Shown in pieces: positions 2,343-18,738 of a DNA stretch of 64,000 bases. Origin of the DNA: an uncultured Myxococcales bacterium (GTDB lineage Bacteria; Myxococcota_A; Polyangia; Palsa-1104; JAEUJZ01); assembly GCA_964460115.1 (NCBI GenBank), contig CAYWPR010000010.1, forward strand, positions 55,275 to 119,274, written 5' to 3'. Positions within the stretch are counted from its first letter, which is position 1. Every line of letters begins with the position of its first letter. The notes under the pieces were generated by a model. The model had not been told where the DNA came from. It saw only the letters and a list, made by a program, of their open reading frames with translations, and made no database searches. Position numbers and translations under genes: made by a program.

Positions 2343-3158
2343 TCAGGTTCCGCTAAACTCCGGAGGGCGCTTCATAAAGAAGGCGCTCATGCCTTCCATA
2401 CAATCTTTGCTGCGCAAAAGTTTCATTTGCTCGACCACTTCGCCTTCCAGCGCTTGCTCCAGACTGCCATCGAGCGCCGCGTAGACCGACCGCTTGATGG
2501 CACGCAAAGCCAGCGGCGCGCCTTGGGCCAGACGCTGCACAATTTCAAAGGCCGTATCAAAGTCGCTACAAATGCGGTTTAAAAGGCCGAGCCGCGCGGC
2601 TTCCTCGGCTTCGATGGCATCGCCAAGCAGCATCATCTCTAGCGCCTTGCTGACGCCGATGAGCCGCGGCAAGGTATAGGTGCTGCCGCCATCGGGCATT
2701 AAGCCGCGCTTCACAAATAGCTCGGCAAAGCTCGCTCGCGTCGTGCCAAGGCGCAGGTCACAGGCCAAAGCCAGGTCGCAGCCGAATCCCACCGCCGGAC
2801 CGTTCAAAAAAGCCACCACCGGCTTTTCGACACGCCGCACCGCGCGTATTAGCGCATGAAAATGCTGCCGCATGTGCTGTTCCCCAACAGAGCCTACCGC
2901 CGCATCATCCGCCCCCTGCAGCGATTGAAATAGGACCATTCCGACTTTCAGATCCAGGCCAGAGCAAAACGCTTCGCCGCGGCCGCTTAGCAGCACCGCG
3001 CGCACCGCTTGGTCACGACCGGCCGCGTCAAGCGCATCTACAAGCGCCGTGCAAAGCTCAAGGGTTAAGCCATTTTTCGACTGCGGACGATTTAGCGTCA
3101 AGCAGCGGATGGCACCTTTATTGGTCACTTCCAGATCGGAAAAGGCTATATCGGTCAT
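2343..3158 (-). CDS. Enoyl-CoA hydratase/isomerase (crotonase superfamily).
   Basis: Crotonase fold motifs AFCSGLDLK and FLNGPAVGFGCDLALACDLRL (oxyanion hole/CoA binding). Its stop overlaps the start of the upstream AI-2E gene (3155-3158). Confidence 0.85.
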   Translation of the reverse strand: MTDIAFSDLEVTNKGAIRCLTLNRPQSKNGLTLELCTALVDALDAAGRDQAVRAVLLSGRGEAFCSGLDLKVGMVLFQSLQGADDAAVGSVGEQHMRQHFHALIRAVRRVEKPVVAFLNGPAVGFGCDLALACDLRLGTTRASFAELFVKRGLMPDGGSTYTLPRLIGVSKALEMMLLGDAIEAEEAARLGLLNRICSDFDTAFEIVQRLAQGAPLALRAIKRSVYAALDGSLEQALEGEVVEQMKLLRSKDCMEGMSAFFMKRPPEFSGT

Positions 3159-4318
3159 GGCACCTCTTTGGCCTCTTTAGAGGAGGCAACTGGGTCTACG
3201 GAAAATTGTTCGGAAGAGGTCGCAACGGTGCGGCCCTGATAAAACGGAGTCTCGGTATACATATCGATAAGACGCGGCAGCACAACCTTTAGCACCGCCG
3301 CCACGGGCACCGCCAAAAGCAGCCCGGCGTAGCCGAGTAGACTGCCGCCTAGACTTAGCGCAAAGATCACGCCGACGGCCGAAAGGCCAATGCGCCCGCC
3401 AACGGCGCGCGGAGTGATGACCACTGCGTCTAGTAGTTGCACCGCGCCAAACGTCAAAAGCACGCCTAAAATCGGTGTGGCGCCGCGACTGGAAGCGCTA
3501 AGCAGCGCCATGGCCAGTGCCAAAAGCAGTCCTATCGAGACGCCCACGTAGGGCACAAAAGCCAGAAATCCGGCGGTGCAGCCAATGACGATGGCCAGCG
3601 GAATGCCGGTTAACGACAAACCTATAGAGTACAGCGCCGCCTGAATTAGCATGACGGTAATCTGACCGCGCAGCCAGCCGCCAAGCGCCACTTGAATGTC
3701 ATGCATGACGGCGCTGGCGGTCAGTTGATGCCGCGGTGGAACCAGGCGGCGCAGGCCATCTGTCATGTCGGGCATATCCATCAAAAAGGACACCGCGAAG
3801 ATCGGCACCAGCAGCACGGCAAGGACAATGCGAAAAAATCCCGCAACGCTAAGCAAAGCCGAGCCGACAGCCCCGGAAATCTCACCCGCGGCGCCACGCG
3901 CCCAATCGCCCAGGCGGTCGGAAAACAGCCGCATGTAGTCGTTTACGCTGGCGGCGCGGGTCTTTAGAACTTTTCCCAGCATCGGCAGCACTCGAGTGTC
4001 GAGGAGCTTTTTGTAGGCGGGAATTTGCTGCGCGAAATGATCAAATTCCTGACTGACCAAATGCGGCAAAGTCAGAACAATCGCCGTCAAAAGTCCGACA
4101 AAAGTCAGAACCATGCCGACCACCGCCAGCCAGCGCGGAACGCCGCGCGCTTCCAGCGCCTGGACTGCCGGATCCAGCAAAAACGCCACGACCAGGGCCA
4201 CGCCCACCGGCGCCAGCACCATCGACAAGCGCGACATCACGGTCCACGCCAGCGAACAAAGAACGATGTACAGAAGCAATCGAAACAAAAATAGGGTTAG
4301 GCGGCGATCGTCTATCAT
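3155..4318 (-). CDS. AI-2E family transporter (PerM/TqsA-like permease).
   Basis: 387 aa with about 8 predicted TM helices and a long hydrophobic architecture typical of the AI-2E/UPF0118 family. It has a 4-nt overlap with the downstream crotonase gene. Confidence 0.75.
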   Translation of the reverse strand: MIDDRRLTLFLFRLLLYIVLCSLAWTVMSRLSMVLAPVGVALVVAFLLDPAVQALEARGVPRWLAVVGMVLTFVGLLTAIVLTLPHLVSQEFDHFAQQIPAYKKLLDTRVLPMLGKVLKTRAASVNDYMRLFSDRLGDWARGAAGEISGAVGSALLSVAGFFRIVLAVLLVPIFAVSFLMDMPDMTDGLRRLVPPRHQLTASAVMHDIQVALGGWLRGQITVMLIQAALYSIGLSLTGIPLAIVIGCTAGFLAFVPYVGVSIGLLLALAMALLSASSRGATPILGVLLTFGAVQLLDAVVITPRAVGGRIGLSAVGVIFALSLGGSLLGYAGLLLAVPVAAVLKVVLPRLIDMYTETPFYQGRTVATSSEQFSVDPVASSKEAKEVP

Positions 4319-4327
4319 GCTCCCGTA

Positions 4328-5842
4328 TTATCTCCGCTTGCCCGTCGAGCGCCATCGGAATTTGGCCAGACGGGCCAGCCAGGTGACGGCTTCTTGCGGG
4401 GTTAGATGTCGAAAAATCTGACGATATACTGCGGGATGGCGCGCTGCGGTGGCCAGCATGAAGCGCACAAAGCTCGGCGCATCGACTTCGTCCTGCAAAA
4501 AAGCGGCGTAGGTCGAATCGCCCTGCTCCAAAAGTGTGGCAAAGGCCGCGTTTAAAAGCTGGTTGATGGCATTTTGATGCGCCAACGCGTCCTCGACCGA
4601 AGGCATCATCATCAAAGTCAGCCCGCCCATCACTTGAAGCGCCGGCGGTTCAAGATTTGTCCACAGCGCATGCAGAGTGGAATGTTCCAGCTCGTCCTTG
4701 GCAAGCAGCCGAATCAGCCCCTGGCTGATGGGCCAGAAGGAACGAATCATCGAACCAAATCCGCAAAACGTCAGCGGAGAATGACGCGCCGCCGCATCGC
4801 CAACTAGTAGCACGCGCCGATTCGGAGTCGCTGGCATGGGACCAAGCCGCGTGTAGGCCGGAATATAGCCATAGGTCGGCCGTACAAGCTGCAGGGTTCC
4901 GCTTTTATAGCGCGGCAGGGTGCTAAAAAATCGCTCATACAGGCCGAGAAGCGGATGCTCTCCGGCGGCAATCGCGTCACGAAGCTGCTCTGCGCGCTGG
5001 TAATAAAAAAGATAGATGGTCATGGCGCCTGGCTTTGGCGCTGGAAAGCCTTCCCAAATGTGCTGCTGCTCTTCTTCTATGCCCTCGGTGGTGATTAAAA
5101 TCTCACCGACTTCGGGATCCAGTTCTTGGGGCGCGGTGCCTAGGGTCAGCCCCTCCATTACGCCACCCACCGTTGGACAGCACAAATCAAAGCGGGCGTG
5201 CGGGCTGTGGGCGCCAAGCGCGTCGATAAATAGCCGCGCAAACATTCCGCGTCTCTGCGCTGGCGCCGCCACCGAAGCAGTCTCGACATACACGCCGTCG
5301 TGCGCGACACGATATCCCGTCAGCGCATGCATCTCCAAAAGCGTCGCCCCGGCATCTAGGGCAATTCGGCGCAGACTTTGCAAAAAGGCAGCGGCATCGA
5401 TCACGCAATCCAAAACATTGCGCACTGGATAGGCCGGCCCCTCGGCAAATCGGCAAATGCCGATGCGGTACTGCATTGCGATGAGTGCGTCGACCTCTTC
5501 CTGCGTAAAAAGGCCAGAGACGACAAGCGGCAAAAGCTCGCGCTTTGAGATGTTCCATTCGCGATGGCCAAAGCCGATTCGTCCTCGATCAAAGACGCAG
5601 ACGCGAAGCCCGGCGCGGGCCAGAGTTGCGGCATAAATAAGCGACAGGCCGCCTCCAGCCAATACGACATCAAATTGCGGCACAGACCGAGAAAGCTTGC
5701 TCAGATCGCCTAGCTCACCTCCCGAGCTCGTCAGTGCATGCGCGCGGCTTTTAGAAAAACCCTGCTCCAGGGCCAAAAGATGATCTAGAGCATCGAGCCC
5801 CGAAAACGCCGGGTTTGGCGGCCCATCTGCGCCTTGTTTCAT
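4328..5842 (-). CDS. FAD-dependent oxidoreductase, lycopene-cyclase-like.
   Basis: N-terminal Rossmann dinucleotide motif DVVLAGGGLSLIYAATLARAGLRVCVFD. The protein is about 500 aa, the size of the lycopene cyclase/flavoprotein family. The ORF track starts at 6013, but the first 57 codons are His/Arg/Ser-rich junk-like, so the ATG at 5842 is preferred. Confidence 0.7.
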   Translation of the reverse strand: MKQGADGPPNPAFSGLDALDHLLALEQGFSKSRAHALTSSGGELGDLSKLSRSVPQFDVVLAGGGLSLIYAATLARAGLRVCVFDRGRIGFGHREWNISKRELLPLVVSGLFTQEEVDALIAMQYRIGICRFAEGPAYPVRNVLDCVIDAAAFLQSLRRIALDAGATLLEMHALTGYRVAHDGVYVETASVAAPAQRRGMFARLFIDALGAHSPHARFDLCCPTVGGVMEGLTLGTAPQELDPEVGEILITTEGIEEEQQHIWEGFPAPKPGAMTIYLFYYQRAEQLRDAIAAGEHPLLGLYERFFSTLPRYKSGTLQLVRPTYGYIPAYTRLGPMPATPNRRVLLVGDAAARHSPLTFCGFGSMIRSFWPISQGLIRLLAKDELEHSTLHALWTNLEPPALQVMGGLTLMMMPSVEDALAHQNAINQLLNAAFATLLEQGDSTYAAFLQDEVDAPSFVRFMLATAARHPAVYRQIFRHLTPQEAVTWLARLAKFRWRSTGKRR

Positions 5843-6048
5843 CCCAGTCCTTGCCGGAATGCTTGCAAATGCAGCAACGGTGCGCGGAAAACGTGACTTC
5901 AAAGCATCGCGTAGCACAGACCCTCTTTTCTTACTGCACGGGCGCAAAAGGTTATGCGAAGATAGGCGCGAATGCGAATCCCTGTGCCCATGCATGGGGC
6001 TGCCCATTTTCAAGAACTACTTCAGCCACTTCCAGGTGACAACGCATC

Positions 6049-7683
6049 ATGACTAGCACTGCCCCCGCTGAGAAAAATCCCGCTGAAGGATATTTGATCG
6101 AATCAAGCAAGCGGCTGTCCGATTCGATGCTGTGGAATCTGCAGCGCCAGTATTACGATCAGCGTGGTCTTAGCGCCTGGGCGTCGGGAGCGGTCCCTTC
6201 TTATGTGACCAGCAATCCGTACATCGCCAATGCCTACGCCCAAGTTGTGATGGCTTTTTTGCGCGATGCAGCAGCCGCGCCGCCAAGTCACAACGGTGCC
6301 TGCTTGTTAAAGCGCGACAAACCTATTTACATCGTCGAGCTGGCGGCTGGACATGGACGCTTTTCTTTCCTGTTTCTAAAAAAACTCCTATCGCTTTTGG
6401 CCCAATCGTCATTGCGTGACCTCAACATCCGCTACGTAATGACCGACTTTACCGAAAGCAATCTGCGCAGTTGGCAGGCCCAGCCGCTGTTTAAGCCCTT
6501 CATTGAATCCGGAGTCCTTGACTTCGGACTTTTCGACATCGAAAAAGATACCACGATCAAGCTGTGGTACGGCGGACAGCCTTTGACGGCAACCGCCGTT
6601 GAGAATCCACTTATCATCATTGGCAACTATATTTTCGATACCTTGACGCAGGATCTATTCCGCTTTGACAACGGACAGGTTTACGAGATGCGGGTGACCA
6701 CCTACCACTCGCATCAGCAGGCTCCGGATCTGTCAAATCCTGAGGTCATGTCGCAGTTCTCAATGACCTACGAACCGCATCTCATTAATCCTGCGACCTA
6801 TTATTCGGAGCCATTTCTAAACCAATTGCTTTTGGAGTATCGCGATCGTCTAAGCGATACGACCATTGCCTTGCCGACCGGCGCGCTGCGGGGCATTTTT
6901 CGGCTGCTTGAGCTTTCGGGAAAACGCTGCTTGCTGCTTTCTTCCGACAAAGGCTACACGCACGAAGATGAGCTGTTTTTCCTGACCAATCAGCACATCC
7001 AATTTCACGGCAGCTTGTCGATGATGGTGAACTTTCACTGCATGGGTTTGGCCCTTGGCCATCCGTCCATAGGCGGTCTCAGCATGGCCACCGCGCAGCG
7101 GCACATAAACCTAAAGACTGCGGGTTTTTTGGTTGGGGCCAAAGAGGAGATGTTTCGCGATACGCTGCTTTGTTTTCGCGAACAGATGGACGTCTTTGGA
7201 CCCTATGACTTCTACACGCTGACGACGCAGGCTCGGCAAAGCACGCAAAATCCCCAAATCGAACAAATTTTGTGCCTGCTGCGCCTAAGTCAGTACGATC
7301 CGAACTTGGTTCTGGAATTCTCCAAGGAATTGCTCGAGCAAGCACCGGCGCTGAGCGAGACAATTAAGCAAGAGCTATATCTGGCCCTACTCCGCTGCTG
7401 GGAGAATTTTTATCCCTTGGGGCGCGATCTGCCCTTCGAAGTGGCGCGTATCCTTTTGGCCATGCGCCGTCCCAAAGAAGCCGTCCTATTCAACCAGCAC
7501 TCGATTGAACTTTTCGGCGAACATCCCGTGACGCTGGGAAACATGGGAATCTGTTATTATCACGCCGAAGAGCCCGAAGAAGCACTGCGCTGCTTTGATC
7601 TGTCGCTGCACTTGAATCCGAATTATGGACTGCCCAAAGCCTGGAAAGCGCGCCTAAGCGGCGAAAAAGACCGTCAAGCTTAG
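6049..7683 (+). CDS. Hypothetical protein with a possible MidA/NDUFAF7-like methyltransferase fold and a C-terminal TPR.
   Basis: The IVELAAGHGRFSFLFLKKLL segment resembles the SAM-binding loop of Methyltransf_28 proteins. The C-terminal about 100 aa show TPR-like periodicity (ALRCFDLSLHLNPNY). It is divergent from the flavoprotein gene. Confidence 0.45.
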   Translation: MTSTAPAEKNPAEGYLIESSKRLSDSMLWNLQRQYYDQRGLSAWASGAVPSYVTSNPYIANAYAQVVMAFLRDAAAAPPSHNGACLLKRDKPIYIVELAAGHGRFSFLFLKKLLSLLAQSSLRDLNIRYVMTDFTESNLRSWQAQPLFKPFIESGVLDFGLFDIEKDTTIKLWYGGQPLTATAVENPLIIIGNYIFDTLTQDLFRFDNGQVYEMRVTTYHSHQQAPDLSNPEVMSQFSMTYEPHLINPATYYSEPFLNQLLLEYRDRLSDTTIALPTGALRGIFRLLELSGKRCLLLSSDKGYTHEDELFFLTNQHIQFHGSLSMMVNFHCMGLALGHPSIGGLSMATAQRHINLKTAGFLVGAKEEMFRDTLLCFREQMDVFGPYDFYTLTTQARQSTQNPQIEQILCLLRLSQYDPNLVLEFSKELLEQAPALSETIKQELYLALLRCWENFYPLGRDLPFEVARILLAMRRPKEAVLFNQHSIELFGEHPVTLGNMGICYYHAEEPEEALRCFDLSLHLNPNYGLPKAWKARLSGEKDRQA

Positions 7684-7698
7684 TTTAAGTTTCGCACT

Positions 7699-8274
7699 TT
7701 ATTGTCCGTCGATTTTTTCGAGTTTTTCGTCGATTTTTCGTGCGGACAGCGCCAATAACTTGGCGGCCCCGGCCGACACAGAATCGCCAAATTCCCGCGA
7801 GCTTTGTTGTAACTGCTTGGCCAGCATCCGCTTCTGCGCGCGACGACGCAGATCATCGGGGTTGGGAAAAAGGACGCCGCGCAGGTGCAAAAGCAGCCAG
7901 GTCGTCCACAGCACCATGGGCAGCGCCAACCACAGCGGAGTTCCGGTCCACACCCCCGTAAGAAAAAGGAGTCCATTTAGCGATGCAAAAGCGATAAAGT
8001 GCCCAGTCAGACGCCGATAGCCCAGTTGATGAATCTCGTGCTCGGCGGTCAAAAGCCGCTGGTCGACTTCGTACTGGGCTAGCGCGGTCGTCGCCTGCGC
8101 TTCGGAATAGCCAAGTTCCCGCGCGGTTTCGATAAGCTCACCGCGCGTAAAGCCATTTCCCTGGGTCTCACTCGCCCCGGCATCCGGAGTTGCCAGTCGC
8201 TGCACGCGGCGCAGCACTTCATGCGCTTGCTGCTGGCTGTAGTGTCTTTTCGAAGTTCGATCTTGCGACGCCAT
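7699..8274 (-). CDS. 2TM-domain membrane protein (hypothetical).
   Basis: A soluble N-domain is followed by two adjacent hydrophobic helices (FIAFASLNGLLFLTGVWTG / LWLALPMVLWTTWLLLHL) and a basic tail. The start is set at the internal ATG 8274; the longer ORF to 8376 would overlap the amidase gene. Confidence 0.55.
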   Translation of the reverse strand: MASQDRTSKRHYSQQQAHEVLRRVQRLATPDAGASETQGNGFTRGELIETARELGYSEAQATTALAQYEVDQRLLTAEHEIHQLGYRRLTGHFIAFASLNGLLFLTGVWTGTPLWLALPMVLWTTWLLLHLRGVLFPNPDDLRRRAQKRMLAKQLQQSSREFGDSVSAGAAKLLALSARKIDEKLEKIDGQ

Positions 8275-8402
8275 ATATATTTCAGTCTGCCCCACGCGAT
8301 TTGACGCGGCAAGCCGCGAACAAGCTGCGCACAAACGCGTACAAGATCGCGCCCTTGATGCTTGGCGTTGCGCCACAAGCGTGCGAGTATCGTTGCCTCT
8401 TC

Positions 8403-9884
8403 ATGCGGCTACGCCAATACGATGATCTAGATGCCCTCGCGCTGGCTGAACTCATTGCCAAAAAGGAGCTATCGCCGCAAGAGGTGCTGGAAGCAGCCAT
8501 CGAGCGCATTACGGAACGCAATCCGCGCCTCAACGCGGTCGTGCATACTTTGTTTGAACGCGCGCGAGCGCGGGTCGCTGACCTGCCCGATGGCCCTTTG
8601 CGTGGTGTGCCTTTTCTGCTCAAAGATTTGAAACTGCAGCTTGCCGGCACGCCGACGACAGGCAGCACGCGCCTGGCCATGTCCAAGATTGCGACCCAAA
8701 GCAGCGTGCTCACCGAGCGATACGAAGCCGCCGGACTGCAGATTCTGGGCAAGACCAATACTCCAGAGCTTGGCATCATGGGGGTTACTGAGCCGGCCGT
8801 TCGTGGTCCTTGCAAAAATCCCTGGAACTTGGCCCATACCTCGGGCGGCAGTTCCGGAGGCGCAGCCGCAGCAGTAGCAGCGCGCATGGTCCCCATTGCC
8901 CATGGCGGCGACGGCGGAGGCTCTATTCGCATTCCGGCCTCGGCCTGCGGTTTGTTTGGATTAAAACCCACCCGCGGTCGCGTGACGATGGCGCCTTTTG
9001 CCGGGGAAGGATGGGGCGGATTTGTGCAAGAGCACGTGCTAAGCCGCTCGGTGCGCGACAGCGCAGCGCTGCTTGACATTGCCGATCCGCCCACCCCGGG
9101 CGAGCCTTATGGAGTTCCGGCCAAAGCCCGACCGTGGCTGGAAGAAGTCGGACGAGATCCTGGAAAGCTGCGCATCGCCTTCAGCAAACAGCCTTTTTAT
9201 AGCGGTCAAACCCATCCAGACTGTGCAGCCGCTGTAGATGATTCCATCAAGCTGCTTAGCAGCCTTGGCCACGAAGTGGTTGAAGCTCGTCCCGCATTTT
9301 CGCGACAAGACATGGTCGCTGCCTACTTTTTGACGGTGGCCGTCCACGTTGCGCGGACTGTGGAGCAAATCAGCCAAGAAGCCGGCAAAAAGACGCCCGA
9401 TGCGGCCGACTTTGAAGCGGTGACTTATCTTTTGGCATGCATCGGCTGGAAAACCAGCGCCCCCAAACTGCTGGCCGCGCAGCAGCTTATGCAAAAAACC
9501 GCACGCGACGTCGCAGGCTTTTTTCAGCAGTACGATATGCTGCTGACGCCGACTCTGGCCCAGCCGCCTGTGCGCATTGGGCAACTTGAAATGACGCGCA
9601 GCGAGCTTTTGCAATTGGCGATACTGCGCACCCTGCCCCTTGGCAAGCTGCTCGATCTGGCATTGCACAACATGGGCGGCGCCAAGCTGGCCTATACGCC
9701 CAACACCCAGCTATACAATCAGATTGGTCAGCCGGCGATGAGCGTGCCGCTTTTCACAAACGCGCAAGGACTGCCCATCGGAGTGCAGTTTGGCGCCGGC
9801 TTTGGAGAGGAAGCGAAGCTATTTCGTTTGGCGGCGCAGCTTGAAGCCGCCCGACCTTGGGCAACGCGCAAGCCCCCCCTCTAA
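8403..9884 (+). CDS. Amidase (amidase-signature family, GatA-like).
   Basis: Canonical AS signature GGSSGGAAAAVAARMVPIAHGGDGGGSIRIPASACGLFGLKPTRGRV containing the Ser-cisSer-Lys triad context. The start is chosen at ATG 8403 so that the N-terminus (LAELIAKKELSPQEVLEA) matches the family N-terminus. Confidence 0.9.
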   Translation: MRLRQYDDLDALALAELIAKKELSPQEVLEAAIERITERNPRLNAVVHTLFERARARVADLPDGPLRGVPFLLKDLKLQLAGTPTTGSTRLAMSKIATQSSVLTERYEAAGLQILGKTNTPELGIMGVTEPAVRGPCKNPWNLAHTSGGSSGGAAAAVAARMVPIAHGGDGGGSIRIPASACGLFGLKPTRGRVTMAPFAGEGWGGFVQEHVLSRSVRDSAALLDIADPPTPGEPYGVPAKARPWLEEVGRDPGKLRIAFSKQPFYSGQTHPDCAAAVDDSIKLLSSLGHEVVEARPAFSRQDMVAAYFLTVAVHVARTVEQISQEAGKKTPDAADFEAVTYLLACIGWKTSAPKLLAAQQLMQKTARDVAGFFQQYDMLLTPTLAQPPVRIGQLEMTRSELLQLAILRTLPLGKLLDLALHNMGGAKLAYTPNTQLYNQIGQPAMSVPLFTNAQGLPIGVQFGAGFGEEAKLFRLAAQLEAARPWATRKPPL

Positions 9885-9921
9885 TTCACATTCACAGGTT
9901 GGTTACAGCCCCGGAGACATC

Positions 9922-10482
9922 GTGGGATACATCTTTCACCCCGAAAAAATTCACGAAATCAGCAAACGTGGCATCGGTCTGCCACATCGTCAGATGTGCC
10001 AAGCAATCGTCGATGGTCTATCGCAGGAATATCGAAATCACATCGATGAAAATCCGCGCTGGATGTTCAATATGGCGGCGGGCGCCACCGGCTGCATGGC
10101 GCTACTGCATTGCTCGCTGACCGAATACATCATGATCTTCGGTTCGGCCATCGGCACCGAAGGATATTCCGGCCGCTATCACCTGGACATCTACGATTCG
10201 GTGGTGGCCGGTGAAATGTGGACTTGTACCGAGGCCCAATTGCACGAAAAGCAGGTACATAGTCCCGGAGAGCTTGCTCACCTGCCGCGCCGCAGCACCA
10301 AAGCTTATCGCATCATCGACGGAACTTGGATGGTCGAGTATGGCCGAGGCCTGATTCCTACGGCGCTTCCAGTAGGACTGGCCGATGCGGCTTTTAGCGC
10401 CATGGATGCGCGAACCATTTGGAAAACGCTGGTCAGCTACGCCCGACTGGCGACGCGCGAACTGGCGCAGGGCAAGATTTGA
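9922..10482 (+). CDS. ERG2 / sigma-1-receptor family protein (C-8 sterol isomerase-like).
   Basis: Strong colinear similarity to human sigma-1 receptor / yeast ERG2:
- RWMFNMAAGATGCMALLHCSLTEYIMIFGSAIGTEGYSGRYH vs [42 protein letters not shown].
- TWMVEYGRGLIPTAL vs TWMVEYGRGVIPSTL.
- VSYARL vs RSYARG.
The GTG start at 9922 has a GGAG SD 5 nt upstream. The ORF-track ATG at 9790 would overlap the amidase by 95 nt. No N-terminal TM helix is present. Confidence 0.8.
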   Translation: MGYIFHPEKIHEISKRGIGLPHRQMCQAIVDGLSQEYRNHIDENPRWMFNMAAGATGCMALLHCSLTEYIMIFGSAIGTEGYSGRYHLDIYDSVVAGEMWTCTEAQLHEKQVHSPGELAHLPRRSTKAYRIIDGTWMVEYGRGLIPTALPVGLADAAFSAMDARTIWKTLVSYARLATRELAQGKI

Positions 10483-10510
10483 TGCGGAGCGGACAAAGTA
10501 GGCGTACCTG

Positions 10511-12331
10511 ATGATCATCTTGGGCCTTAACGCCTACCATGGCGATGCCAGCGCGGCCTTGCTAGTCAATGGCGATTTGGTCGGAGCCGTCGAAGAAGAA
10601 CGCCTGAACCGGCAAAAACACTGCGCCGGCTTTCCCAAGTTGGCAGTGGCAAGCTGTTTGTCGCTAGCACCGGCCGAAATTTCGGCGCAGGACATCGATC
10701 ACGTCGCAATCTCACGCGATCCGCGGGCCCAGATTTTGCGCAAAGCCGCTTATCTAAGCGGTCAAGCATTGCACTTGGTCCTTTCGCCTGCTGCGCAAAG
10801 CCACCGCGCGAATTTTTTGGCAACGCTGCGCCAGCGTCTTTCCAATCGCCAGCGCTTGCACAAGCTGCACAACGTTCTGGCGGCGGCGCTTAGCGTTTCT
10901 CCGCAGCATCTGCGCGCCAAATTTCATGCCGTCGAGCATCATCGCGCCCATCTTGGCAGTGCATTTTTCGCTTCGGAATTTTCCGAAGCGGCGGTGCTGT
11001 CTCTGGATGGCTTTGGCGATTTTGTATCGACGATGTGGGGCATCGGCCGCGATAGGCACATCGATGTGCTGGGCGAGGTTTGCTTTCCTCATTCCCTGGG
11101 CGTGCTTTATACCGCTGTCTGCCAGTGGCTCGGTTTTGCCAAGTATGGCGATGAAGGCAAGGTCATGGGACTGTCGGCCTATGGCCGTCCGCGTCATCTT
11201 GAAAGGATGCGGGCGCTTTTGCAGCTAGGCGACTCGGATACCGGCCATTTCGCGCTGAATTTGCGCTACTTTCGCCATCATCGCGCAGGCGTGGACATGA
11301 GCTTTTTGGACGGAACGCCCAGCCTTGGCAAGCTGTATGCGCCAGCGCTCTGCGAACTTTTGGGCGCGCCCCGTCCGCCCGGACCCGACATCGAAAAAGA
11401 GGAGTATTTCTGCGATGTGGCGGCCAGTCTGCAAGCCTTGCTGGAAGAGGCAGTCCTGCACATCTGCAAAGCGCTGTACCGGCGAACCGGACTGCGCCGT
11501 CTGTGTCTGGCCGGCGGAGTCGCTTTAAACTGCGTGGCCAACGGACGAATTCTTGATGAAAGCGGATTTCGCGAGCTCTTTATTCAACCAGCAGCCGGCG
11601 ACAATGGCACGGCGCTCGGCGCAGCGCTGTGGGTCGAGCATCAGATTCTTGGCCGACCGCGCCGCTTTGTCATGCGACATGCCTACACCGGCCCGCAATT
11701 TGATGAAGCTGCCTGCCGCGCCGCGGTGAAACAATTTCGCAAAGATTTTTCGTGCGACTGGCCTCTCGAACGACTCAGCGAATTCGAACGCGTCGAGCGC
11801 GCCGCCAGCGCCATCGCCGATGGCGCCGTGCTCGGCTGGTATCAGGGGCGCATGGAATTTGGTCCGCGGGCGCTAGGACATCGCAGCATTTTGTGCGATC
11901 CGCGCAATCCGCAAATCAAAGAAGTACTCAACCGTCGCATCAAGCATCGCGAGCCATTTCGCCCATTTGCTCCCTCGGTGCTTGCCGACCAAGCGGCGGA
12001 CTGGTTCGAGCGCGGCGCTCCCTCGCCAGCTATGTTGCTAGTGGACCGCGTGCGCCAAGAACGGTGGGCCCTTGTGCCGGCGGTGACCCATCAAGATGGA
12101 ACCGCGCGGCTTCAGACTGTATCCGCCGAATCTAGCCCGCTTTATTACGCGCTGCTGCAAGCTTTTTGGCGCCGCACCGGAGTGCCCATGCTGCTAAACA
12201 CGTCCTTTAACGAGCACGAACCCATCGTCTGTACCCCCGCCGAGGCGCTGCACTGCTTTGCCAAAACCCACATGGACGTGCTGGTTCTAGGTCCGTTTTA
12301 TATCGAACGCCCCGGCTGGCATCCGCAATGA
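10511..12331 (+). CDS. Carbamoyltransferase (NodU/CmcH/TobZ family).
   Basis: N-terminal MIILGLNAYHGDASAALLVNGDLVGAVEEERLNRQKH (Kae1/YgjD-like carbamoyltransferase N-domain), size 606 aa, and the C-terminal YrdC-like carbamoyl-adenylate domain. Confidence 0.9.
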   Translation: MIILGLNAYHGDASAALLVNGDLVGAVEEERLNRQKHCAGFPKLAVASCLSLAPAEISAQDIDHVAISRDPRAQILRKAAYLSGQALHLVLSPAAQSHRANFLATLRQRLSNRQRLHKLHNVLAAALSVSPQHLRAKFHAVEHHRAHLGSAFFASEFSEAAVLSLDGFGDFVSTMWGIGRDRHIDVLGEVCFPHSLGVLYTAVCQWLGFAKYGDEGKVMGLSAYGRPRHLERMRALLQLGDSDTGHFALNLRYFRHHRAGVDMSFLDGTPSLGKLYAPALCELLGAPRPPGPDIEKEEYFCDVAASLQALLEEAVLHICKALYRRTGLRRLCLAGGVALNCVANGRILDESGFRELFIQPAAGDNGTALGAALWVEHQILGRPRRFVMRHAYTGPQFDEAACRAAVKQFRKDFSCDWPLERLSEFERVERAASAIADGAVLGWYQGRMEFGPRALGHRSILCDPRNPQIKEVLNRRIKHREPFRPFAPSVLADQAADWFERGAPSPAMLLVDRVRQERWALVPAVTHQDGTARLQTVSAESSPLYYALLQAFWRRTGVPMLLNTSFNEHEPIVCTPAEALHCFAKTHMDVLVLGPFYIERPGWHPQ

Positions 12332-12335
12332 AGGC

Positions 12336-13244
12336 TTAGGGTTTGGAAGCGGACGGGACCAAAGTCGCGTCCGCATGCAAAGTTCGCGCTTCTTCGGCTT
12401 TGCTGAAACGCTTGGCCTCTTCCCAGTAAACATTCATTTGTTCAAGCGTCAGATTTTTCAACTCGTGCCCGTCGCGGCGGGCACTGCTCTCGACAGAGCC
12501 AAAACGGCGACAAAAACGCTGGTTGGCGGCGCGCAAAGCTTCCTCGGGCCCAATGCCGAGCTTGGCCCCGAGCCGAGTCAGCGTAAATAGCAGATCGCCC
12601 AGCTCATGCACCATTGCCGAGCGGTCTCCTTGCGCAATGGCTTCATCGAGTTCGGCCAATTCCTCGTCGACTTTTTCGCGAACTCCACCCAGTTTGGGCC
12701 AGTCAAAGCCCACCGCCGCGGCTTTTTCGCCCAGTCGCTGCGCGCGCAAAAGCGCCGGCAAGGCCTGCGGCACGCCATCCACCGCGCTGCCCTGCTTGCC
12801 AGCGGCTTTTTTCTCTTCCTGTTTCAGCCGCTGCCAGGCCACAAGCTGCTCTGCCGAGTCCTTGATGATTGCATCGCCGAATATGTGCGGATGTCGACGC
12901 ACCATCTTTTCGACCAAGGTTTTGCAGACATCGTCAATGTTGAAGTCTCCTTGGCGCTCACGCAGGCCCGCTTGAAAAACCACTTGAAACAGCAGATCAC
13001 CAAGCTCCTCGCGATGACCCGCAACATTTCCTTCTTCGAGTGCCTCTAGAACCTCATAGGCTTCTTCGATGAGGTAGGGCCGCAGCGATTCCAGGGTCTG
13101 CTCGCGATCCCAAGGGCAACCGTTTTCTGCCAGCAAGCGATTTAGCAGGGCAACTACCTCGCCAAAGCGATCGCCGCCGCCGGGCAGCAACGAAACAGAT
13201 GTAGCGTTCGCGGCGGACGCCGCAGTTTCACGGGTCGTGGTCAT
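12336..13244 (-). CDS. mazG: Nucleoside triphosphate pyrophosphohydrolase MazG (tandem MazG domains).
   Basis: Two EExxE-containing MazG repeats (LIEEAYEVLEALEEGN and VDEELAELDEAIAQGD) plus the CPWDREQT motif. The start is set at the internal ATG (cat at 13242-13244). Confidence 0.85.
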   Translation of the reverse strand: MTTTRETAASAANATSVSLLPGGGDRFGEVVALLNRLLAENGCPWDREQTLESLRPYLIEEAYEVLEALEEGNVAGHREELGDLLFQVVFQAGLRERQGDFNIDDVCKTLVEKMVRRHPHIFGDAIIKDSAEQLVAWQRLKQEEKKAAGKQGSAVDGVPQALPALLRAQRLGEKAAAVGFDWPKLGGVREKVDEELAELDEAIAQGDRSAMVHELGDLLFTLTRLGAKLGIGPEEALRAANQRFCRRFGSVESSARRDGHELKNLTLEQMNVYWEEAKRFSKAEEARTLHADATLVPSASKP

Positions 13245-13336
13245 TCGACAAGTCCGTTTTAGAGGTTGCGCGGACAATAGTCGTCCGCCGCTGTGCTGGC
13301 AAGTTCGGACATACAAGACTTGGTGAGGATGCCTGA

Positions 13337-15739
13337 ATGGGGCTACCATGGAAACAACCTATGAATTTCTCCCGGCGTGCCTTGTTGGCACTGGCGCCCT
13401 TGTGCCTTGTCGCGGCCTGCGCCGCTCCAGTGCGCGTCGCAGAAAAGCCGCCCTCGACAGCTTTCGTACCGACCGGCGCGGCGCCCCCCGGCAATGCGGC
13501 AGCCGTCCCCCCCGGCAATCTTTCAGCCATCAAAGGCGACGAAGACGCCGAGCGCATGCGCCAAACGCTGGACGCGCTTTTCGAAAACGATCCCGCACGT
13601 CCCGCCCTATTTCGCGCCCTGCTCGATTACTACGTCGAGCAGGCCAAGGTCGCCCTTTTGCGCAAACAAAGCGAAGAAGCCTATCAAAGCTTTGAAACCG
13701 CTTTGACGCTTTTTGCCGTCTCTGATCTGCAAAATCTGCCGCCGCCGCCAGTCGCACCGGATCTTTTAACCGTCGCGCGGCAGCTCGATCGTATCTATAG
13801 CCGCCGCGGCGCCCATCCGCAGGTCATCACCGCGATGATGGTGCAAATGACGCTGCAACCAAGCGACCCGGAACTGCAGCGCCGCTACGCCGAAATCAGC
13901 GCCTGGCTAAATAGCCAAAACGAGGGCCTGCCCAGTCTGATGCGCGGCCGAGGCGGGACCTTGTCCAATTTGCTTGCGGCACCACCGCCAACGCTGCAAT
14001 TCGATTTGGAACAGACCTACAAAGTCTGGCCGGTGCCCAAGATTCGCGACGAGCTTGTGGCCATCTATCGCGCCGATGCCGCCGGCAGCATGACGGGCGG
14101 CAAAAAATCCTCCAAGGATTTTTTGCAGTCTTTGTCTGCGAGCCTGCGCCGCAAAGGCTTGACCAATGGACCGGCATTTAAGATTGCGCGGCTCTACCTG
14201 CGCGTATCTAAGCCCCAGGAAGCCGTGGCCGCCATCAAGCAACTGGCGCGCTTGTCGGCCGAAGATGCCAAGCTTTTGGCGCTTTTGGAAGAAACGCTCG
14301 GCCGGCCGGCCGGCCCCGGCGAAACCGAAGAAAGACTGGTTCCGGCAATCAAACTGGCCATGTCGATGGCGCAAAATCCTGAAGATATCGAAGTCAGCTT
14401 GCAAATTTGCCAGGACATTGCGCGGCGTGCGCCGAATCTGCCGAGCGCCCATACCTGCGTTGGCGAGTTGGCGCTGGTGATGGAAAAAAAAGGGCTGGCG
14501 CTTACTGCCTTTGAACGCGTGCGCGCACTTCTGCCCGGCGAACGCGGCGTATGGGACATGGTCGGCCGCCTTTACGTGGACAAACTCAGCGACTTGGTCA
14601 TCGATGAACGTACTGCCTATTTGGAAGACGCGCTCAAACAGGTTGAAGCGTTTTACCAAAGCATGCGCAAACAGTTTCCGCAGAATCCGCCTACAGCCGG
14701 AATCGCGGTTGCCCTGGCCGAGGTAGGTCGCGGCTATTACAACGCCGGGCGCATTGCGGATGCGCTGCGATATCTTGAGCGTTCGATTGCCGTGGAACCA
14801 AATGCCCTGGCGCTTGAGCAACTGGGAATCTTGCTATTGCGCCGCGGCGAATACGAACGGGCGGCGCAAACGCTCGAGCGAGCACGCGCGGTGTTTACGG
14901 CCAATCAGCAGGCCGATCCAAGCGCTCGGATGCTCTTTTTCGCCCGCATGGGCCGATTGGTGGCGGAAGCGCTAGAGATGCATCCGCAGCTTGCAGTGAA
15001 GCGCCAAGCGGCTGAAGTACGCGAGCGGACGCTGCGCCAGTTTGAGCAACTTTTGGATAGCAACCGACTAAGCAGCAGCCGCGCTGGAGAGGCGGAAATC
15101 GAACGCGGCAAGCTGCTTTACGAAAATGGGCAACGTGAACAGGCGCTAGAAGCCTTTCGCCGTGCTGCCGACGCCACGGGGGCTGATGAACCGCAAGGCC
15201 GCAGCCAGGGACAGCCCTACGTCGATATGATGGCGTTTTTGATACCTCGCGGTGAAATCGAAGAATCGGTCAGCATGTACCATCGCGCTTTGGGACGAGT
15301 ACGCCTGTCCGAAGCCATGAAGGTCTACACGTCGCTATGGGTCAGCGACATTTTGGCCCGCGCCGGCCAACCCGCCGATCCGTTGACGGAAGCGGTCTTT
15401 GCCGCGGTGCAAGGCGGCAAATGGCCCACGGACCTGGCGCGTTGGGCAAACGGCAGGCTCAGCGAATCCGAACTTTTGATCCGTGCCGATACGCCTGGCA
15501 AACAGGCAGAAGCCAATTTTTATCTGGGAATGGCGCATCTGCGGGCTGGAGAGCGACCACAAGCGGAAGCCTGCTGGCGCAAGGTTCTGGAGACGCAGAT
15601 GTTCGGGTACTTCGAATACGAAATGGCCAGCCTCTATTTGCGGCAAAAAGGCGCACCCACCGCGCCGGTCCCGGCAGTGACTGTACCCGCTTCGACGCGC
15701 GCCACTCCTTCCGTGCGAACTCCAGCCGGAAGCATTTAG
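13337..15739 (+). CDS. Large TPR-repeat lipoprotein (function unknown).
   Basis: Signal peptide with a lipobox (LAPLCLVAAC), a GAGGA SD 7 nt upstream of the ATG, and multiple TPR-like helical repeats over 800 aa. Confidence 0.7.
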   Translation: MGLPWKQPMNFSRRALLALAPLCLVAACAAPVRVAEKPPSTAFVPTGAAPPGNAAAVPPGNLSAIKGDEDAERMRQTLDALFENDPARPALFRALLDYYVEQAKVALLRKQSEEAYQSFETALTLFAVSDLQNLPPPPVAPDLLTVARQLDRIYSRRGAHPQVITAMMVQMTLQPSDPELQRRYAEISAWLNSQNEGLPSLMRGRGGTLSNLLAAPPPTLQFDLEQTYKVWPVPKIRDELVAIYRADAAGSMTGGKKSSKDFLQSLSASLRRKGLTNGPAFKIARLYLRVSKPQEAVAAIKQLARLSAEDAKLLALLEETLGRPAGPGETEERLVPAIKLAMSMAQNPEDIEVSLQICQDIARRAPNLPSAHTCVGELALVMEKKGLALTAFERVRALLPGERGVWDMVGRLYVDKLSDLVIDERTAYLEDALKQVEAFYQSMRKQFPQNPPTAGIAVALAEVGRGYYNAGRIADALRYLERSIAVEPNALALEQLGILLLRRGEYERAAQTLERARAVFTANQQADPSARMLFFARMGRLVAEALEMHPQLAVKRQAAEVRERTLRQFEQLLDSNRLSSSRAGEAEIERGKLLYENGQREQALEAFRRAADATGADEPQGRSQGQPYVDMMAFLIPRGEIEESVSMYHRALGRVRLSEAMKVYTSLWVSDILARAGQPADPLTEAVFAAVQGGKWPTDLARWANGRLSESELLIRADTPGKQAEANFYLGMAHLRAGERPQAEACWRKVLETQMFGYFEYEMASLYLRQKGAPTAPVPAVTVPASTRATPSVRTPAGSI

Positions 15740-15756
15740 CGCAAACAGCCGCCCGC

Positions 15757-16485
15757 TCAAACAGTCGTCAGCGCAAACAATTCGACATCTACGCCGGGGC
15801 TGAAGTAGTCCGCGGTGCGCTGCTCGCCGTGTGCAATCTGTGCAGCAGATAGCAGCGTCTCTTCTATTTGGTGAACGCGCGCTTTGTGCAAAGGATAGGG
15901 CCGGTGATGAACCTGGCCGCGAAACAAACGACCGCTGGCGCTAGTCGCATACAGAAAATAGCGCTCGGCCAGAAAAAACTGCAAAGTTCCTACCTGGCTG
16001 GACGGCAGCACCTCTTCTACGGTGTACTGCAGATTCAAGCGTGCCTCGCCGCTGTGGCGCCGGCTTTGATAGTGCACCGTAGAACCATCGACGCGCAGGT
16101 CCATCGTCGCGTAGTGGTAGGGCAGATGGAAAAACGTTCGCGCGGCGTACACCGCCAGCCGATTGGCGGCATCGAGGCTGAAAAACCAGACGCCGGGATT
16201 GCCGCCTTCGTGCAAAACATAGGTGCGAACGTTGGTTTCGTGAAAATTGGCGGTTCCCGGAATCGCCGGCAGAAACCGAAACGGACGCACATTTTGCATC
16301 GTAAACGGAACCAGTCCGACGTAAGCGCGCCCCTCATAAGTATCAATGTCTAGCGATTTGGGAACAAGGGAGCGCAAAAGTGCAACCGGCACTTCCCAAT
16401 GCAAAAATAGCAAGCTGCGCCATTGCTGGTAGCCTTGCGGTGGACCAGCCGGGCGCTTTGTCGGTGTGATTCGATCAATGGTCAT
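15757..16485 (-). CDS. DUF2071 family protein (hypothetical).
   Basis: The WRSLLFLHWEVP ... YVGLVPFTMQNVRP pattern is typical of the DUF2071/COG3361 family. Confidence 0.6.
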   Translation of the reverse strand: MTIDRITPTKRPAGPPQGYQQWRSLLFLHWEVPVALLRSLVPKSLDIDTYEGRAYVGLVPFTMQNVRPFRFLPAIPGTANFHETNVRTYVLHEGGNPGVWFFSLDAANRLAVYAARTFFHLPYHYATMDLRVDGSTVHYQSRRHSGEARLNLQYTVEEVLPSSQVGTLQFFLAERYFLYATSASGRLFRGQVHHRPYPLHKARVHQIEETLLSAAQIAHGEQRTADYFSPGVDVELFALTTV

Positions 16486-16535
16486 GACGGCAATTCCTAT
16501 ATCGGATTCGAAACAGTGCCGAAATTGTCGAAAGC

Positions 16536-17153
16536 TTAGTTTCCTTCTTTTAGGCGCGAGCGAATTTTTTCAAGCAGCTTGTCGTAGCTTTGCTCGGTGA
16601 TGATCTTGTGAAACTGCGTCTTGTAGTTACGCACCAGGCTGACTTCGTCGGTGATGATGTCCCAAACCATCCACGTCCCGCCGACTTTGTGCATTTTGTA
16701 CTCGATTTCAGCGTCGGTGGTTTTGCCTTGGGTTTTGACTTTGACGATGGTTTTGACGCGCGCTTTGTCGGCCGTTATCTGCTCGTCCGAATAGGACACT
16801 TGATAATCCAGACTGTTTTTGATCTGTTTGACGTAGTTTTTTTCGAGCATTTCACGAAAGGCAGCGACAAATTCTTCGCGCTGCTTGGGCAGAAGCGGAT
16901 TCCAGTGATCAGCCAACGAAAGCTTGGCCAGTTCCTGATAGTCCAGAATCTCGCCGGCAAGCTGCTTGATTTGATCCTTTTGCTTCTTTTCTTCAGGTGA
17001 GTCCTTGGCCGGATTTTGCCGCAGCAAACGTTCTACTTGCTCGTTGCGCTGCTTCAAAAGATCCGTAGGACGCGTGTCCGAAGCCCCGAGCGCCAGCATC
17101 GGCACTAGCAGCGCAAAAAGGTATATCGAAAGTTGTCGCAGAACCATGATCAT
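16536..17153 (-). CDS. MlaC/Ttg2D-like periplasmic phospholipid-binding protein.
   Basis: Signal peptide (MIMVLRQLSIYLFALLVPMLALGAS), a Tgt2/MlaC family core and the C-terminal signature KVGGTWMVWDIITDEVSLVRNYKTQF. Its ATG overlaps the stop of the upstream TolC-like gene as ATGA (17150-17153). Confidence 0.75.
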   Translation of the reverse strand: MIMVLRQLSIYLFALLVPMLALGASDTRPTDLLKQRNEQVERLLRQNPAKDSPEEKKQKDQIKQLAGEILDYQELAKLSLADHWNPLLPKQREEFVAAFREMLEKNYVKQIKNSLDYQVSYSDEQITADKARVKTIVKVKTQGKTTDAEIEYKMHKVGGTWMVWDIITDEVSLVRNYKTQFHKIITEQSYDKLLEKIRSRLKEGN

Positions 17154-18520
17154 TCCATTCCGGTTGTGCGCTTCAGCCACGCCAGCGTCAGGTTCGTATC
17201 CATGATGGCTTGCAGATGGCGGATGCGGAAGTCAAAGTAGGTGCGCGCGGCGTCGGTCAGCTCGCGCGCGTCAGTAGATACGGTAAGTCCCTGGGACATG
17301 TTATGGCCGACGATCACGTACCAGCCGCGGGCGACTTTTTCGGCATGCGAAAGCTTGGATTCACGGGTGCGCGCTTCATCGTAGTTGGCATAGGCCGAAG
17401 CCACTTCCACCGCGATGCCGCCAAGCGCTTGACGCCGGCGCTCTTCAGCAACTCGGGCTTCGGCGTCCGCTTGCATATAGCGCGCGCCGCGCACGCCAAA
17501 GTCGAGCGGCTGATTGAGCACCAGCATCGGCACGGGAATGCCGCTTGAAAGTGGACTAAACTGTACCAGCGCCGACAACCCCCCTTCGACCGTTGCATAA
17601 TTTCGATACGAAAGCGTCAAACGAAACCCGATGGTCGGCAACAAATCGGCGATGCGCCATTTGCGAAAGGCCTTGGCCGCAACCACGCTGGCTTCAAGCA
17701 TCTTGGTTTCTGGACGGTGTCTTAGCGCCGCATCTTCAAAATATTCCAAAGATTGTTCCGCTGCCGCAGCGACCTGCAGCTCTTCATCGTCAATGTCGGC
17801 TTCTTTGTCATCCGTTAGAATCTGCAAACCGACCAGGGCCACGGTCAAACCGCGCTGTATATCGACTAGTACAAGTTCAGCGCCGTCGAGCGCCGCCTTC
17901 ATGCGCGCCAAATCCGCCTCGGTGTAATTGCCTTTGTTAGCGCCATCGAGTTCCTCGGCGATTTTATCAATCCATTCCTTCAGCTTGGTCGTGCCTTCTT
18001 CGACCACAAGCTTGGCGGCGCGTGCCCATTTCAGCCCCCAGTAGGCGCGAATGGCGTTATACACAGCATCCTGTTTTGCGGCTTCGATGCCCTGTACCGA
18101 TGCCTGAATTCCGGCTTTGGCCGCGCCGGTGGCAGCCTCGATCTTTCCGAAGGTATAGATCGGCTGCAAGATGTTCAGGTCGATGCCGTAGGAGACACCG
18201 TTGATGTGATCCTTTACCGAGCGGTGATCCTCGCTGCAATCCGCTGCTTTGCCCTCGTCGTTTTTACAGGCATCGTAGTTGCCGGTAAAAAAGGCCGAAA
18301 AGTCGCCGGTGGGCATCCAGCTATAGCGAGCTTGCTTGTATAAGGATTCGGAAGCTCGCAAAGAATGGCGCGCCGCCAGCACTCCGGGATATTCGGTCGC
18401 GACTTTGGTGCAAAGTTCGCGCAGGGTGTACTTTTTGGCATGGGCAATGCCCGACCCCGGCGAGACGAAAGACACAAACGGCCCGACGAGCAGGCCCAAA
18501 AGTAGGAAGAATCTACGCAT
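17150..18520 (-). CDS. TolC-family outer membrane efflux protein.
   Basis: Signal peptide MRRFFLLLGLLVGP and two OEP repeats with coiled-coil segments and beta-strand motifs (LLPTIGFRLTLSYRNY). The start is at the internal ATG (cat 18518-18520). Confidence 0.8.
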   Translation of the reverse strand: MRRFFLLLGLLVGPFVSFVSPGSGIAHAKKYTLRELCTKVATEYPGVLAARHSLRASESLYKQARYSWMPTGDFSAFFTGNYDACKNDEGKAADCSEDHRSVKDHINGVSYGIDLNILQPIYTFGKIEAATGAAKAGIQASVQGIEAAKQDAVYNAIRAYWGLKWARAAKLVVEEGTTKLKEWIDKIAEELDGANKGNYTEADLARMKAALDGAELVLVDIQRGLTVALVGLQILTDDKEADIDDEELQVAAAAEQSLEYFEDAALRHRPETKMLEASVVAAKAFRKWRIADLLPTIGFRLTLSYRNYATVEGGLSALVQFSPLSSGIPVPMLVLNQPLDFGVRGARYMQADAEARVAEERRRQALGGIAVEVASAYANYDEARTRESKLSHAEKVARGWYVIVGHNMSQGLTVSTDARELTDAARTYFDFRIRHLQAIMDTNLTLAWLKRTTGME

Positions 18521-18738
18521 CGGTCTAATCAAGCTAAGCAAGGCGTTTAAGTTAGTTCGGCGGACACAGTATTCGATTTTTGCGTGTGCTGCCATTTGTT
18601 CGCTGAAGTTTCCGTCGAGAAAATCGCAAAACACACGATTTAGACGGCACGAAAATGCTTTTAGCATGCAGCCCCGAGGCTTTCCAACCCTCGTTTCGCG
18701 CCTGCCGCACAATTCGCCGCTGGCGTCGGCAGATCAGC

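Follow-up and report, generated by a model that had tools for sequence, protein, structure and literature searches.

The 64-kb stretch of DNA considered here (64,000 nucleotides of contig CAYWPR010000010.1, positions 55,275 to 119,274, from the assembly GCA_964460115.1 of an uncultured Myxococcales bacterium; below, the window) carries at positions 9922-10482 an intact gene of full length whose product belongs to the anchorless bacterial clade of the ERG2/sigma-1-receptor (S1R) family. The gene stands between those of an amidase-signature hydrolase and of a carbamoyltransferase, and a preliminary description of the same DNA had taken the three for a functional module; the probable myxobacterial origin proposed there was borne out. 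The protein is probably a sterol Δ8-Δ7 (C-8) isomerase of a bacterial sterol pathway, separated from its usual partners, and the trio of genes is best taken for a lineage-specific juxtaposition and not for a pathway. On this reading we infer isomerase activity, a sterol substrate and sterol synthesis by this organism.

Family, fold and conserved residues

The profile search against Pfam placed the translation in the family PF04622 (ERG2_Sigma1R) with E=1.7e-54 and 184.8 bits (cutoff 21), the match covering profile positions 22-210 of 210 and leaving unmatched only the N-terminal anchor part (1-21). A phmmer search of the PDB gave human S1R (5HK1) as a colinear match over residues 2-181 with E=1.4e-34, and the two segments quoted earlier for this likeness, RWMFNMAAGATGCMALLHCSLTEYIMIFGSAIGTEGYSGRYH and TWMVEYGRGLIPTAL, are both present in the 186-residue translation. 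The assignment to the ERG2/S1R family in the preliminary description was thus confirmed. No NCBIfam model matched the protein.

The AlphaFold2 model, which was built from 22 homologues, had a mean pLDDT of 92.7 and contained ten strands, a cupin-like β-barrel (strands at about 47-143) and two C-terminal helices (145-159 and 163-182). When compared by Foldseek with 5HK1 and 6DJZ it gave TMq values of 0.92-0.93 and an rmsd of 1.5 Å at 37% identity; the best matches beyond S1R were generic cupins with TMq below 0.5. In the alignment Tyr103, Asp126 and Glu172 of S1R correspond to Y69, D92 and E139, and the acidic pair singled out in the preliminary description is therefore conserved. The equivalents of Glu172 and Tyr103 are kept in all 81 bacterial homologues and that of Asp126 in 70 of the 81, the window protein being included in both counts, and every invariant residue of the family is intact in it.

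The N-terminal membrane anchor is absent, as had been stated before: besides the unmatched start of the profile, no transmembrane (TM) segment was found in the protein, its highest 19-residue Kyte-Doolittle mean being 1.42 and lying within the β-barrel core. The start codon is GTG, and the start chosen yields the N-terminus MGYIF common to the homologues; the in-frame extension upstream of it is hydrophilic and overlaps the amidase gene. The anchor is missing across the whole bacterial clade, and its absence therefore marks the clade and does not bar the protein from PF04622. With a µH of 0.59 the last helix (163-182) is strongly amphipathic, which together with the likeness to S1R suggests that the protein may be peripherally membrane-associated. 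The third-position GC content (GC3) of the gene is 0.63, and that of the flanking genes 0.63-0.64. A recent horizontal insertion of the gene between its neighbours was considered and has no support in this composition, which speaks against the arrangement being a recent import.

Bacterial ERG2 homologues and their sterol partners

A pattern scan of one genome per species, covering 185,579 species genomes, gave at least 171 confirmed ERG2 loci, concentrated in Myxococcota and Methylococcales, and the earlier statement that the family is rare in bacteria is thus roughly right. The neighbourhood statistics given below cover the best 80 of these at least 171 loci (L003-L082), of which, going by the titles of their records, about 46 belong to Myxococcota or 'Deltaproteobacteria' and 12 to Methylococcales, including Methylotuvimicrobium buryatense 5G; Bryobacteraceae/Acidobacteriota, Rokubacteria, Planctomycetota, Clostridia and Mycobacterium are represented by a few each. 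The protein search returned about 60 near-full-length relatives of 185-200 residues, many of which are labelled 'C-8 sterol isomerase' in their sources, and the homologues of the anchorless clade are 185-187 residues long with the N-terminus MGYIF. The metagenome scan, made with the window protein alone, gave only one locus (L090, 45% identity) and no other close relatives with which the trio could be compared.

Clustering of the genes around the 80 loci showed that the dominant neighbour of ERG2 is a protein of about 430 residues at position +1 on the same strand, which was identified as the ERG4/ERG24 sterol reductase (PF01222, E=2.9e-121). By tblastn, 42 of the 80 loci had ERG24 within 10 kb of ERG2; at the 68 loci where the downstream DNA was long enough, it followed ERG2 directly in 36. 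Other recurrent sterol neighbours were oxidosqualene cyclase (OSC; 6 loci), 3β-HSD/SdmB-like proteins (8), CYP51-like P450 (8) and SE/GGR-like flavoproteins (4). The closest genome-level relative (58-59% identity), from a Lake Baikal Myxococcales metagenome-assembled genome (MAG; locus L003, SHYY01000048.1), lies in a cluster which carries on one strand, at 3471-11847 of the locus, the genes of a GGR/SE-like flavoprotein, an SdmB-like 3β-HSD, an SdmA-like Rieske oxygenase, OSC, ERG2 and ERG24, broken solely by an AbiEii-like open reading frame between the flavoprotein and SdmB-like genes. The sterol link that had been suspected is therefore real for the ERG2 family and is known via other genomes.

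Two motif types were distinguished at the position of Asp126 of S1R among the 81 bacterial homologues, 70 having the S1R-like ...I/V-x-D... (the D126 type) and 11 'DDYF/DDWF'. Both types are found beside ERG24, and 38 of the 70 homologues of the D126 type have it within 10 kb. DDYF occurs also in three TM-bearing fragments (P0062, P0064, P0066), which we take to be eukaryotic. The split may bear on the 'complex' phylogeny of ERG2 noted by Hoshino & Gaucher.

The homologue of Minicystis rosea (L004, 57% identity) has no match to the sterol-gene queries within 10 kb. Since M. rosea produces cholesterol de novo (PMC12004948), a lack of linkage does not speak against a functioning pathway. Publications have recorded bacterial ERG2 homologues since 2009, and the gene of the window is one more member: ERG2 was recorded in Plesiocystis pacifica and mycobacteria (PMC2817430), ERG2 and ERG4/24 were found near osc in bacteria (PMC7306690), a possible myxobacterial origin of eukaryotic ERG2 was put forward together with the myxobacterial genes (PMC8237579), and a C-14 reductase plus a C-8 isomerase were described for Methylotuvimicrobium (PMC13277303), in each case on bioinformatic grounds.

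As a separate observation, ERG2 homologues of 45-48% identity were seen on contigs binned as Bacillota, Clostridia, Oscillospiraceae and Clostridium (L045, L048, L053, L069; GC 50-61%), with no ERG24 near ERG2. The Clostridia and Oscillospiraceae hosts are presumably anaerobes and, if the binning is right, should therefore be unable to make sterols; it is tempting to speculate that their ERG2 homologues might modify host or dietary sterols.

Conservation of the gene trio and history of the locus

The three genes are co-directional, with gaps of 37 nt between the amidase and ERG2 and of 28 nt between ERG2 and the carbamoyltransferase; the tight arrangement first described, with the amidase upstream and the carbamoyltransferase downstream, is real, and the 28-nt gap given for it is exact. 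A consensus scan of the trio found neither terminator-like nor promoter-like sites between the three genes.

The gene-neighbourhood comparison gave a different picture of the proposed module. A homologue of the amidase or of the carbamoyltransferase was found within 10 kb of ERG2 at 0 of the 80 genome loci. The nearest non-identical relative of the ERG2 protein (P0002, 72% identity, at loci L083 and L084) has as its neighbours a Ser/Thr kinase, a hypothetical protein and a MopE-like protein, and neither amidase nor carbamoyltransferase lies beside ERG2 there. The trio recurs only on contigs L001 and L002, from the runs SRR8797211 and SRR8797212; both are 100% identical and therefore presumably come from the same organism. 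The arrangement is thus conserved in no relative, an outcome that the preliminary description itself had named as speaking against a three-gene functional module, and this part of it was not supported.

The orthologues of the two flanking genes were found in settings of their own. Those of the carbamoyltransferase (66-74% identity) occur in unrelated contexts, after fadA/fadB (L085) or between rpoD and rbfA (L086, L088), and those of the amidase (73-75% identity) stand beside an acyl-CoA dehydrogenase and a large polyketide synthase (PKS) (L091, L093) or a V-type ATPase operon (L094); at the three carbamoyltransferase and three amidase loci inspected the other two genes of the trio were near none. 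In Myxococcota each of the two genes is represented by over 100 clusters (53-75% identity). This broad conservation of both suggests that they have a biology of their own, ERG2 being by contrast patchy, and their wide conservation in unrelated contexts argues that the trio is a lineage-specific juxtaposition.

The history of the locus was approached through Myxococcales MAG-82 (GCA_016794505.1, L042), in which an enoyl-CoA hydratase and an AI-2E transporter, 64% and 73% identical to their homologues in the window, are followed after about 3.3 kb by the pair ERG2-ERG24. The window has the hydratase and transporter genes at 2343-4318, 5.6 kb ahead of ERG2, and ERG24 was not found in the 64 kb; the carbamoyltransferase orthologue of MAG-82 (L088) is on a different contig from its ERG2. 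The identity of the two ERG2 proteins is 49%, below the 64-73% of the flanking genes. The synteny suggests that ERG2 may have kept its ancestral position in the window, that ERG24 was lost or moved, and that other genes then became its flanks.

Two of the orthologue contexts may be described further. In L091 and L093, both from Polyangiaceae MAGs, the 75%-identical amidase gene has on one side a divergent epimerase gene and on the other an acyl-CoA dehydrogenase gene, after which comes a very large PKS with KS, AT, KR and DH domains that may be of the polyunsaturated fatty acid (PUFA) synthase type; this suggests that the amidase has a conserved neighbourhood of its own elsewhere. In L086 (ENA ERZ27282990, contig k141_159467) the region 10923-17794 holds genes for a methyltransferase, FA_hydroxylase, MeaB, 3β-HSD, P450 and Rieske/VanA_C proteins, which resemble a sterol-modification cluster and lie 1-8 kb downstream of the 67%-identical carbamoyltransferase orthologue. 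The related L088 is without these sterol-like genes, and the proximity in L086 is therefore probably coincidental.

Flanking genes and other features of the window

The features around the ERG2 homologue are collected in Table 1.

Table 1. Position, strand and supporting evidence of the ERG2 homologue and of neighbouring features in the window.
Feature	Position	Strand	Evidence
Flavoprotein, about 504 residues, divergent sequence	4328-5842	-	sub-threshold FAD-domain (DAO) and GG-reductase-family matches
Small membrane protein, divergently transcribed; upstream boundary of the trio	7699-8271	-	weak 2TM-domain match, PF13239 E=1.6e-4, sub-cutoff
Amidase-signature family hydrolase, 493 residues; first gene of the trio	8403-9884	+	PF01425 E=2e-90
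Shine-Dalgarno-like GGAG	9913-9916	+	sequence reading; 5 nt 5' of the GTG start of the ERG2 homologue
ERG2/sigma-1-receptor family protein, anchorless, 186 residues	9922-10482	+	PF04622, 5HK1, AF2, Foldseek
NodU/CmcH/TobZ-type carbamoyltransferase, 606 residues; last gene of the trio	10511-12331	+	PF02543 E=1.2e-57, PF16861 E=3.2e-69
MazG-type nucleotide pyrophosphohydrolase, convergent; downstream boundary of the trio	12336-13241	-	PF03819 E=8e-34

The amidase matches positions 1-444 of the 445 of its Pfam profile, and every NCBIfam match to it falls under its curated cutoff; its translation has the stretches GGSSGG and GGSIRIP, which we take to be the glycine/serine-rich motif of the amidase signature. 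The carbamoyltransferase covers positions 2-346 of 346 of Carbam_trans_N and 1-170 of 170 of Carbam_trans_C, and with 153.9 bits against a cutoff of 1000 in the NodU model it is not a NodU equivalog. The MazG gene lies 4 nt from the stop codon of the carbamoyltransferase.

Isoprenoid chemistry encoded nearby had been adduced in favour of the module. The SQS_PSY gene (32643-33788; PF00494, E=1.2e-69) is real, but it is 22 kb from the ERG2 homologue, scores best as a phytoene synthase or HpnD, under every curated cutoff, and adds no support. The label 'lycopene-cyclase-like' for the flavoprotein of Table 1 was not upheld, the matches being to FAD domains below threshold; no PDB sequence relative of this protein was found and TIGR02032 reached just 29.6 bits (cutoff 158.8). 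It was also tried as kin of the GGR-like flavoprotein of the Lake Baikal cluster and showed no similarity to it (BLASTP, E=0.55). A FAD_binding_3 protein (20779-21975) was considered as a squalene epoxidase and rejected, since its best score is to an HpxO/PRK06753-type aromatic hydroxylase and the SE-like query had no match in the window.

Three further regions of the window were recorded. The gene at 6049-7683 (+) codes for a 544-residue protein with a weak Methyltransf_28 match, C-terminal TPR repeats and no NCBIfam match, and its GC content of 0.52 is clearly under the 0.58-0.60 of its neighbours. At 47185-48048 (-) is the gene of a 287-residue protein with an MpaB/Lcp (rubber oxygenase-like) catalytic domain (PF09995, E=4e-18), whose product is possibly an isoprenoid- or lipid-oxidising enzyme, unrelated to the ERG2 finding. 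A row of genes at 15757-18712 (-), about 5 kb from ERG2, codes for a DUF2071 (acetoacetate-decarboxylase-like) protein, an MlaC lipid-binding protein and an outer-membrane efflux (OEP) protein and may be a lipid-trafficking unit; no homologues of these genes were seen near ERG2 in other genomes.

Proposed function and alternatives

By analogy with what is known of ERG2 and S1R, the ERG2 homologue would be a monotopic, peripherally membrane-associated cupin barrel, the amphipathic C-terminal helix of which would rest on the membrane surface. The sterol would go into the hydrophobic barrel, where E139 and D92, a buried pair of carboxylates kept in place by Y69, may protonate the substrate or stabilise the C-8 carbocation, and the double bond would be shifted from Δ8(9) to Δ7. 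In related bacteria ERG2 appears as part of a sterol-biosynthesis gene set with the typical order ...OSC-ERG2-ERG24; here it is separated from ERG24 and lies, apparently co-transcribed, between two genes that are widely conserved in Myxococcota.

Several observations weigh against this assignment. The queries for ERG24, OSC, the SE-like monooxygenase, 3β-HSD, P450, FA_hydroxylase and methyltransferase had no match in the 64-kb window, the linkage of ERG2 to sterol genes being found in relatives and not here. Of the 37 columns conserved at 90% or more, the protein deviates from the consensus at 4 (L10I, P38R, P76A, L138V), which ranks it 80th of 81; a somewhat relaxed or shifted constraint is possible, and the changes, two of them conservative and two the loss of a proline, speak mildly for a shift in constraint and not for decay. 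None of the papers searched was seen to characterise a bacterial ERG2 homologue biochemically. No isomerase activity is known for human S1R, which has the same acidic pair, and therefore the conservation of these residues cannot tell an enzyme from a binder. Finally, the spacing of 37 and 28 nt together with the lack of a terminator suggests co-transcription of ERG2 with its neighbours, and a functional operon would look the same.

The idea of one operon, whose products would isomerise or bind a shared lipophilic compound of sterol- or terpenoid-like kind, O-carbamoylate it and hydrolyse an amide, has the following in its favour: the genes are co-directional, closely packed, free of terminator-like sites and bounded by a divergent and a convergent gene, and the same arrangement was seen on two independently assembled contigs. 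These contigs are, however, 100% identical and presumably represent one organism, neither partner accompanies ERG2 at any of the 80 loci or in the 72%-identical relative, and MAG-82, which shares the local synteny, has its ERG2 and its carbamoyltransferase orthologue on separate contigs. Moreover, the orthologues of both partners are widespread in Myxococcota (more than 100 clusters each, 53-75% identity) in unrelated contexts, and the two partners would work against each other chemically if the amidase acted after the carbamoyltransferase on one and the same group. Such an operon is therefore very improbable, and the three-gene module, from which the finding had its unusual look, does not appear from the sequences to hold up. 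Still less probable is the variant in which the ERG2 homologue was recruited, in this lineage, to a genuine operon that makes or remodels a carbamoylated polycyclic lipid, as isomerase or as a binder presenting the substrate; if true, the carbamoylated-lipid operon would show the sigma-1 fold in a role that is new and lies apart from classical sterol synthesis.

A reading that we consider rather unlikely takes the protein for a non-catalytic, S1R-like binder of sterols or lipids, or for an isomerase of a non-sterol substrate, retained outside de novo sterol synthesis. The acidic pair of the D126 type as in S1R, unlike that of the DDYF minority of bacterial homologues, would fit it, and so would the failure to find sterol genes within the 64 kb, the uncoupling of ERG2 from ERG24 here and likewise in the closest relative P0002, the above-average divergence at conserved columns, and the homologues in Clostridia and Oscillospiraceae MAGs, whose hosts, if they are the anaerobes we assume, should be unable to make sterols. 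Yet it is the D126 type that is found in sterol clusters, with ERG24 near 38 of 70 and OSC adjacent in the Lake Baikal locus, the cholesterol producer M. rosea too has an unlinked copy (PMC12004948), and every invariant residue of the family is intact. That the gene is a functionless, drifting leftover of a dismantled sterol cluster, with ERG24 and its partners lost from the lineage, is improbable. The pair ERG2-ERG24 of MAG-82, similarly placed with respect to the enoyl-CoA hydratase and AI-2E transporter genes, the lack of ERG24 in the window, the lower identity of ERG2 (49%) than of the flanking genes (64-73%), and the four deviations at conserved columns are consistent with such decay, but the frame is intact and of full length with a good ribosome-binding site, the catalytic and invariant residues are all kept, the structure model is confident and GC3 is typical of the genome. 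In addition, the intact, 72%-identical orthologue in another sample indicates purifying selection in this sub-lineage.

The probable sterol C-8 isomerase separated from its usual partners adds a somewhat divergent extra member to the anchorless bacterial ERG2/S1R clade, which in itself is of modest value. The clade bears on the evolution of the sigma-1 receptor and on the proposal that eukaryotic sterol synthesis came from myxobacteria. The survey indicates that ERG2-ERG24 is the dominant gene pair in bacteria and that the S1R-type Asp126, not 'DDYF', is present in most bacterial homologues. Since the bacterial ERG2 proteins are small and have no TM helix, they could be tractable models for the study of sigma-1 ligand binding and of the question of an intrinsic isomerase activity.

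Comparison with known systems

The sigma-1 receptor is a ligand-regulated chaperone. Its human and Xenopus structures (5HK1, 6DJZ, 7W2B) belong to the same Pfam family as the window protein, with 37% identity and 185 superposed columns; the residues Y103, D126, E172, E102, S99, Y173 and R175 are all conserved and both C-terminal helices are present. S1R has an N-terminal TM helix, which the window protein lacks, and in the pocket W89 is changed to A, H154 to L, W164 to I and V84 to N. The gene of the window is moreover bacterial, and the genomic partners of the family in its relatives are enzymes of sterol biosynthesis.

The fungal sterol C-8 isomerase ERG2 shares PF04622 and the equivalent of Glu172 with the window protein, and the same reaction is presumed; the fungal enzyme is anchored by an N-terminal TM helix, whereas the window protein is not. 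Yeast ERG2 has 'DDYF' where the window protein and S1R carry the motif of the D126 type. The ERG2 homologues of bacterial sterol clusters (P. pacifica, Methylotuvimicrobium, the Lake Baikal locus, Rokubacteria, Bryobacteraceae) are the most similar, being anchorless proteins of about 186 residues with the N-terminus MGYIF and the C-terminus ...GKI, as in the window, at 43-59% identity and with the same conserved residues. They differ in their location, since they are usually found directly upstream of ERG4/ERG24 and often near OSC, SdmA/B or CYP51-like P450, whereas the ERG2 of the window lies between an amidase and a carbamoyltransferase.

The emopamil-binding protein (EBP/HYD1), the Δ8-Δ7 isomerase of animals and plants, catalyses the reaction proposed here and binds similar cationic amphiphilic ligands; it is a polytopic membrane protein and has no sequence or fold relationship to the window protein. 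ERG2 and EBP are non-homologous (PMC2817430). As to the downstream gene, the NodU/CmcH/TobZ O-carbamoyltransferases share with it both Carbam_trans_N and Carbam_trans_C at full length, and its orthologues in Myxococcota adjoin housekeeping genes (rpoD, rbfA) and not natural-product clusters.

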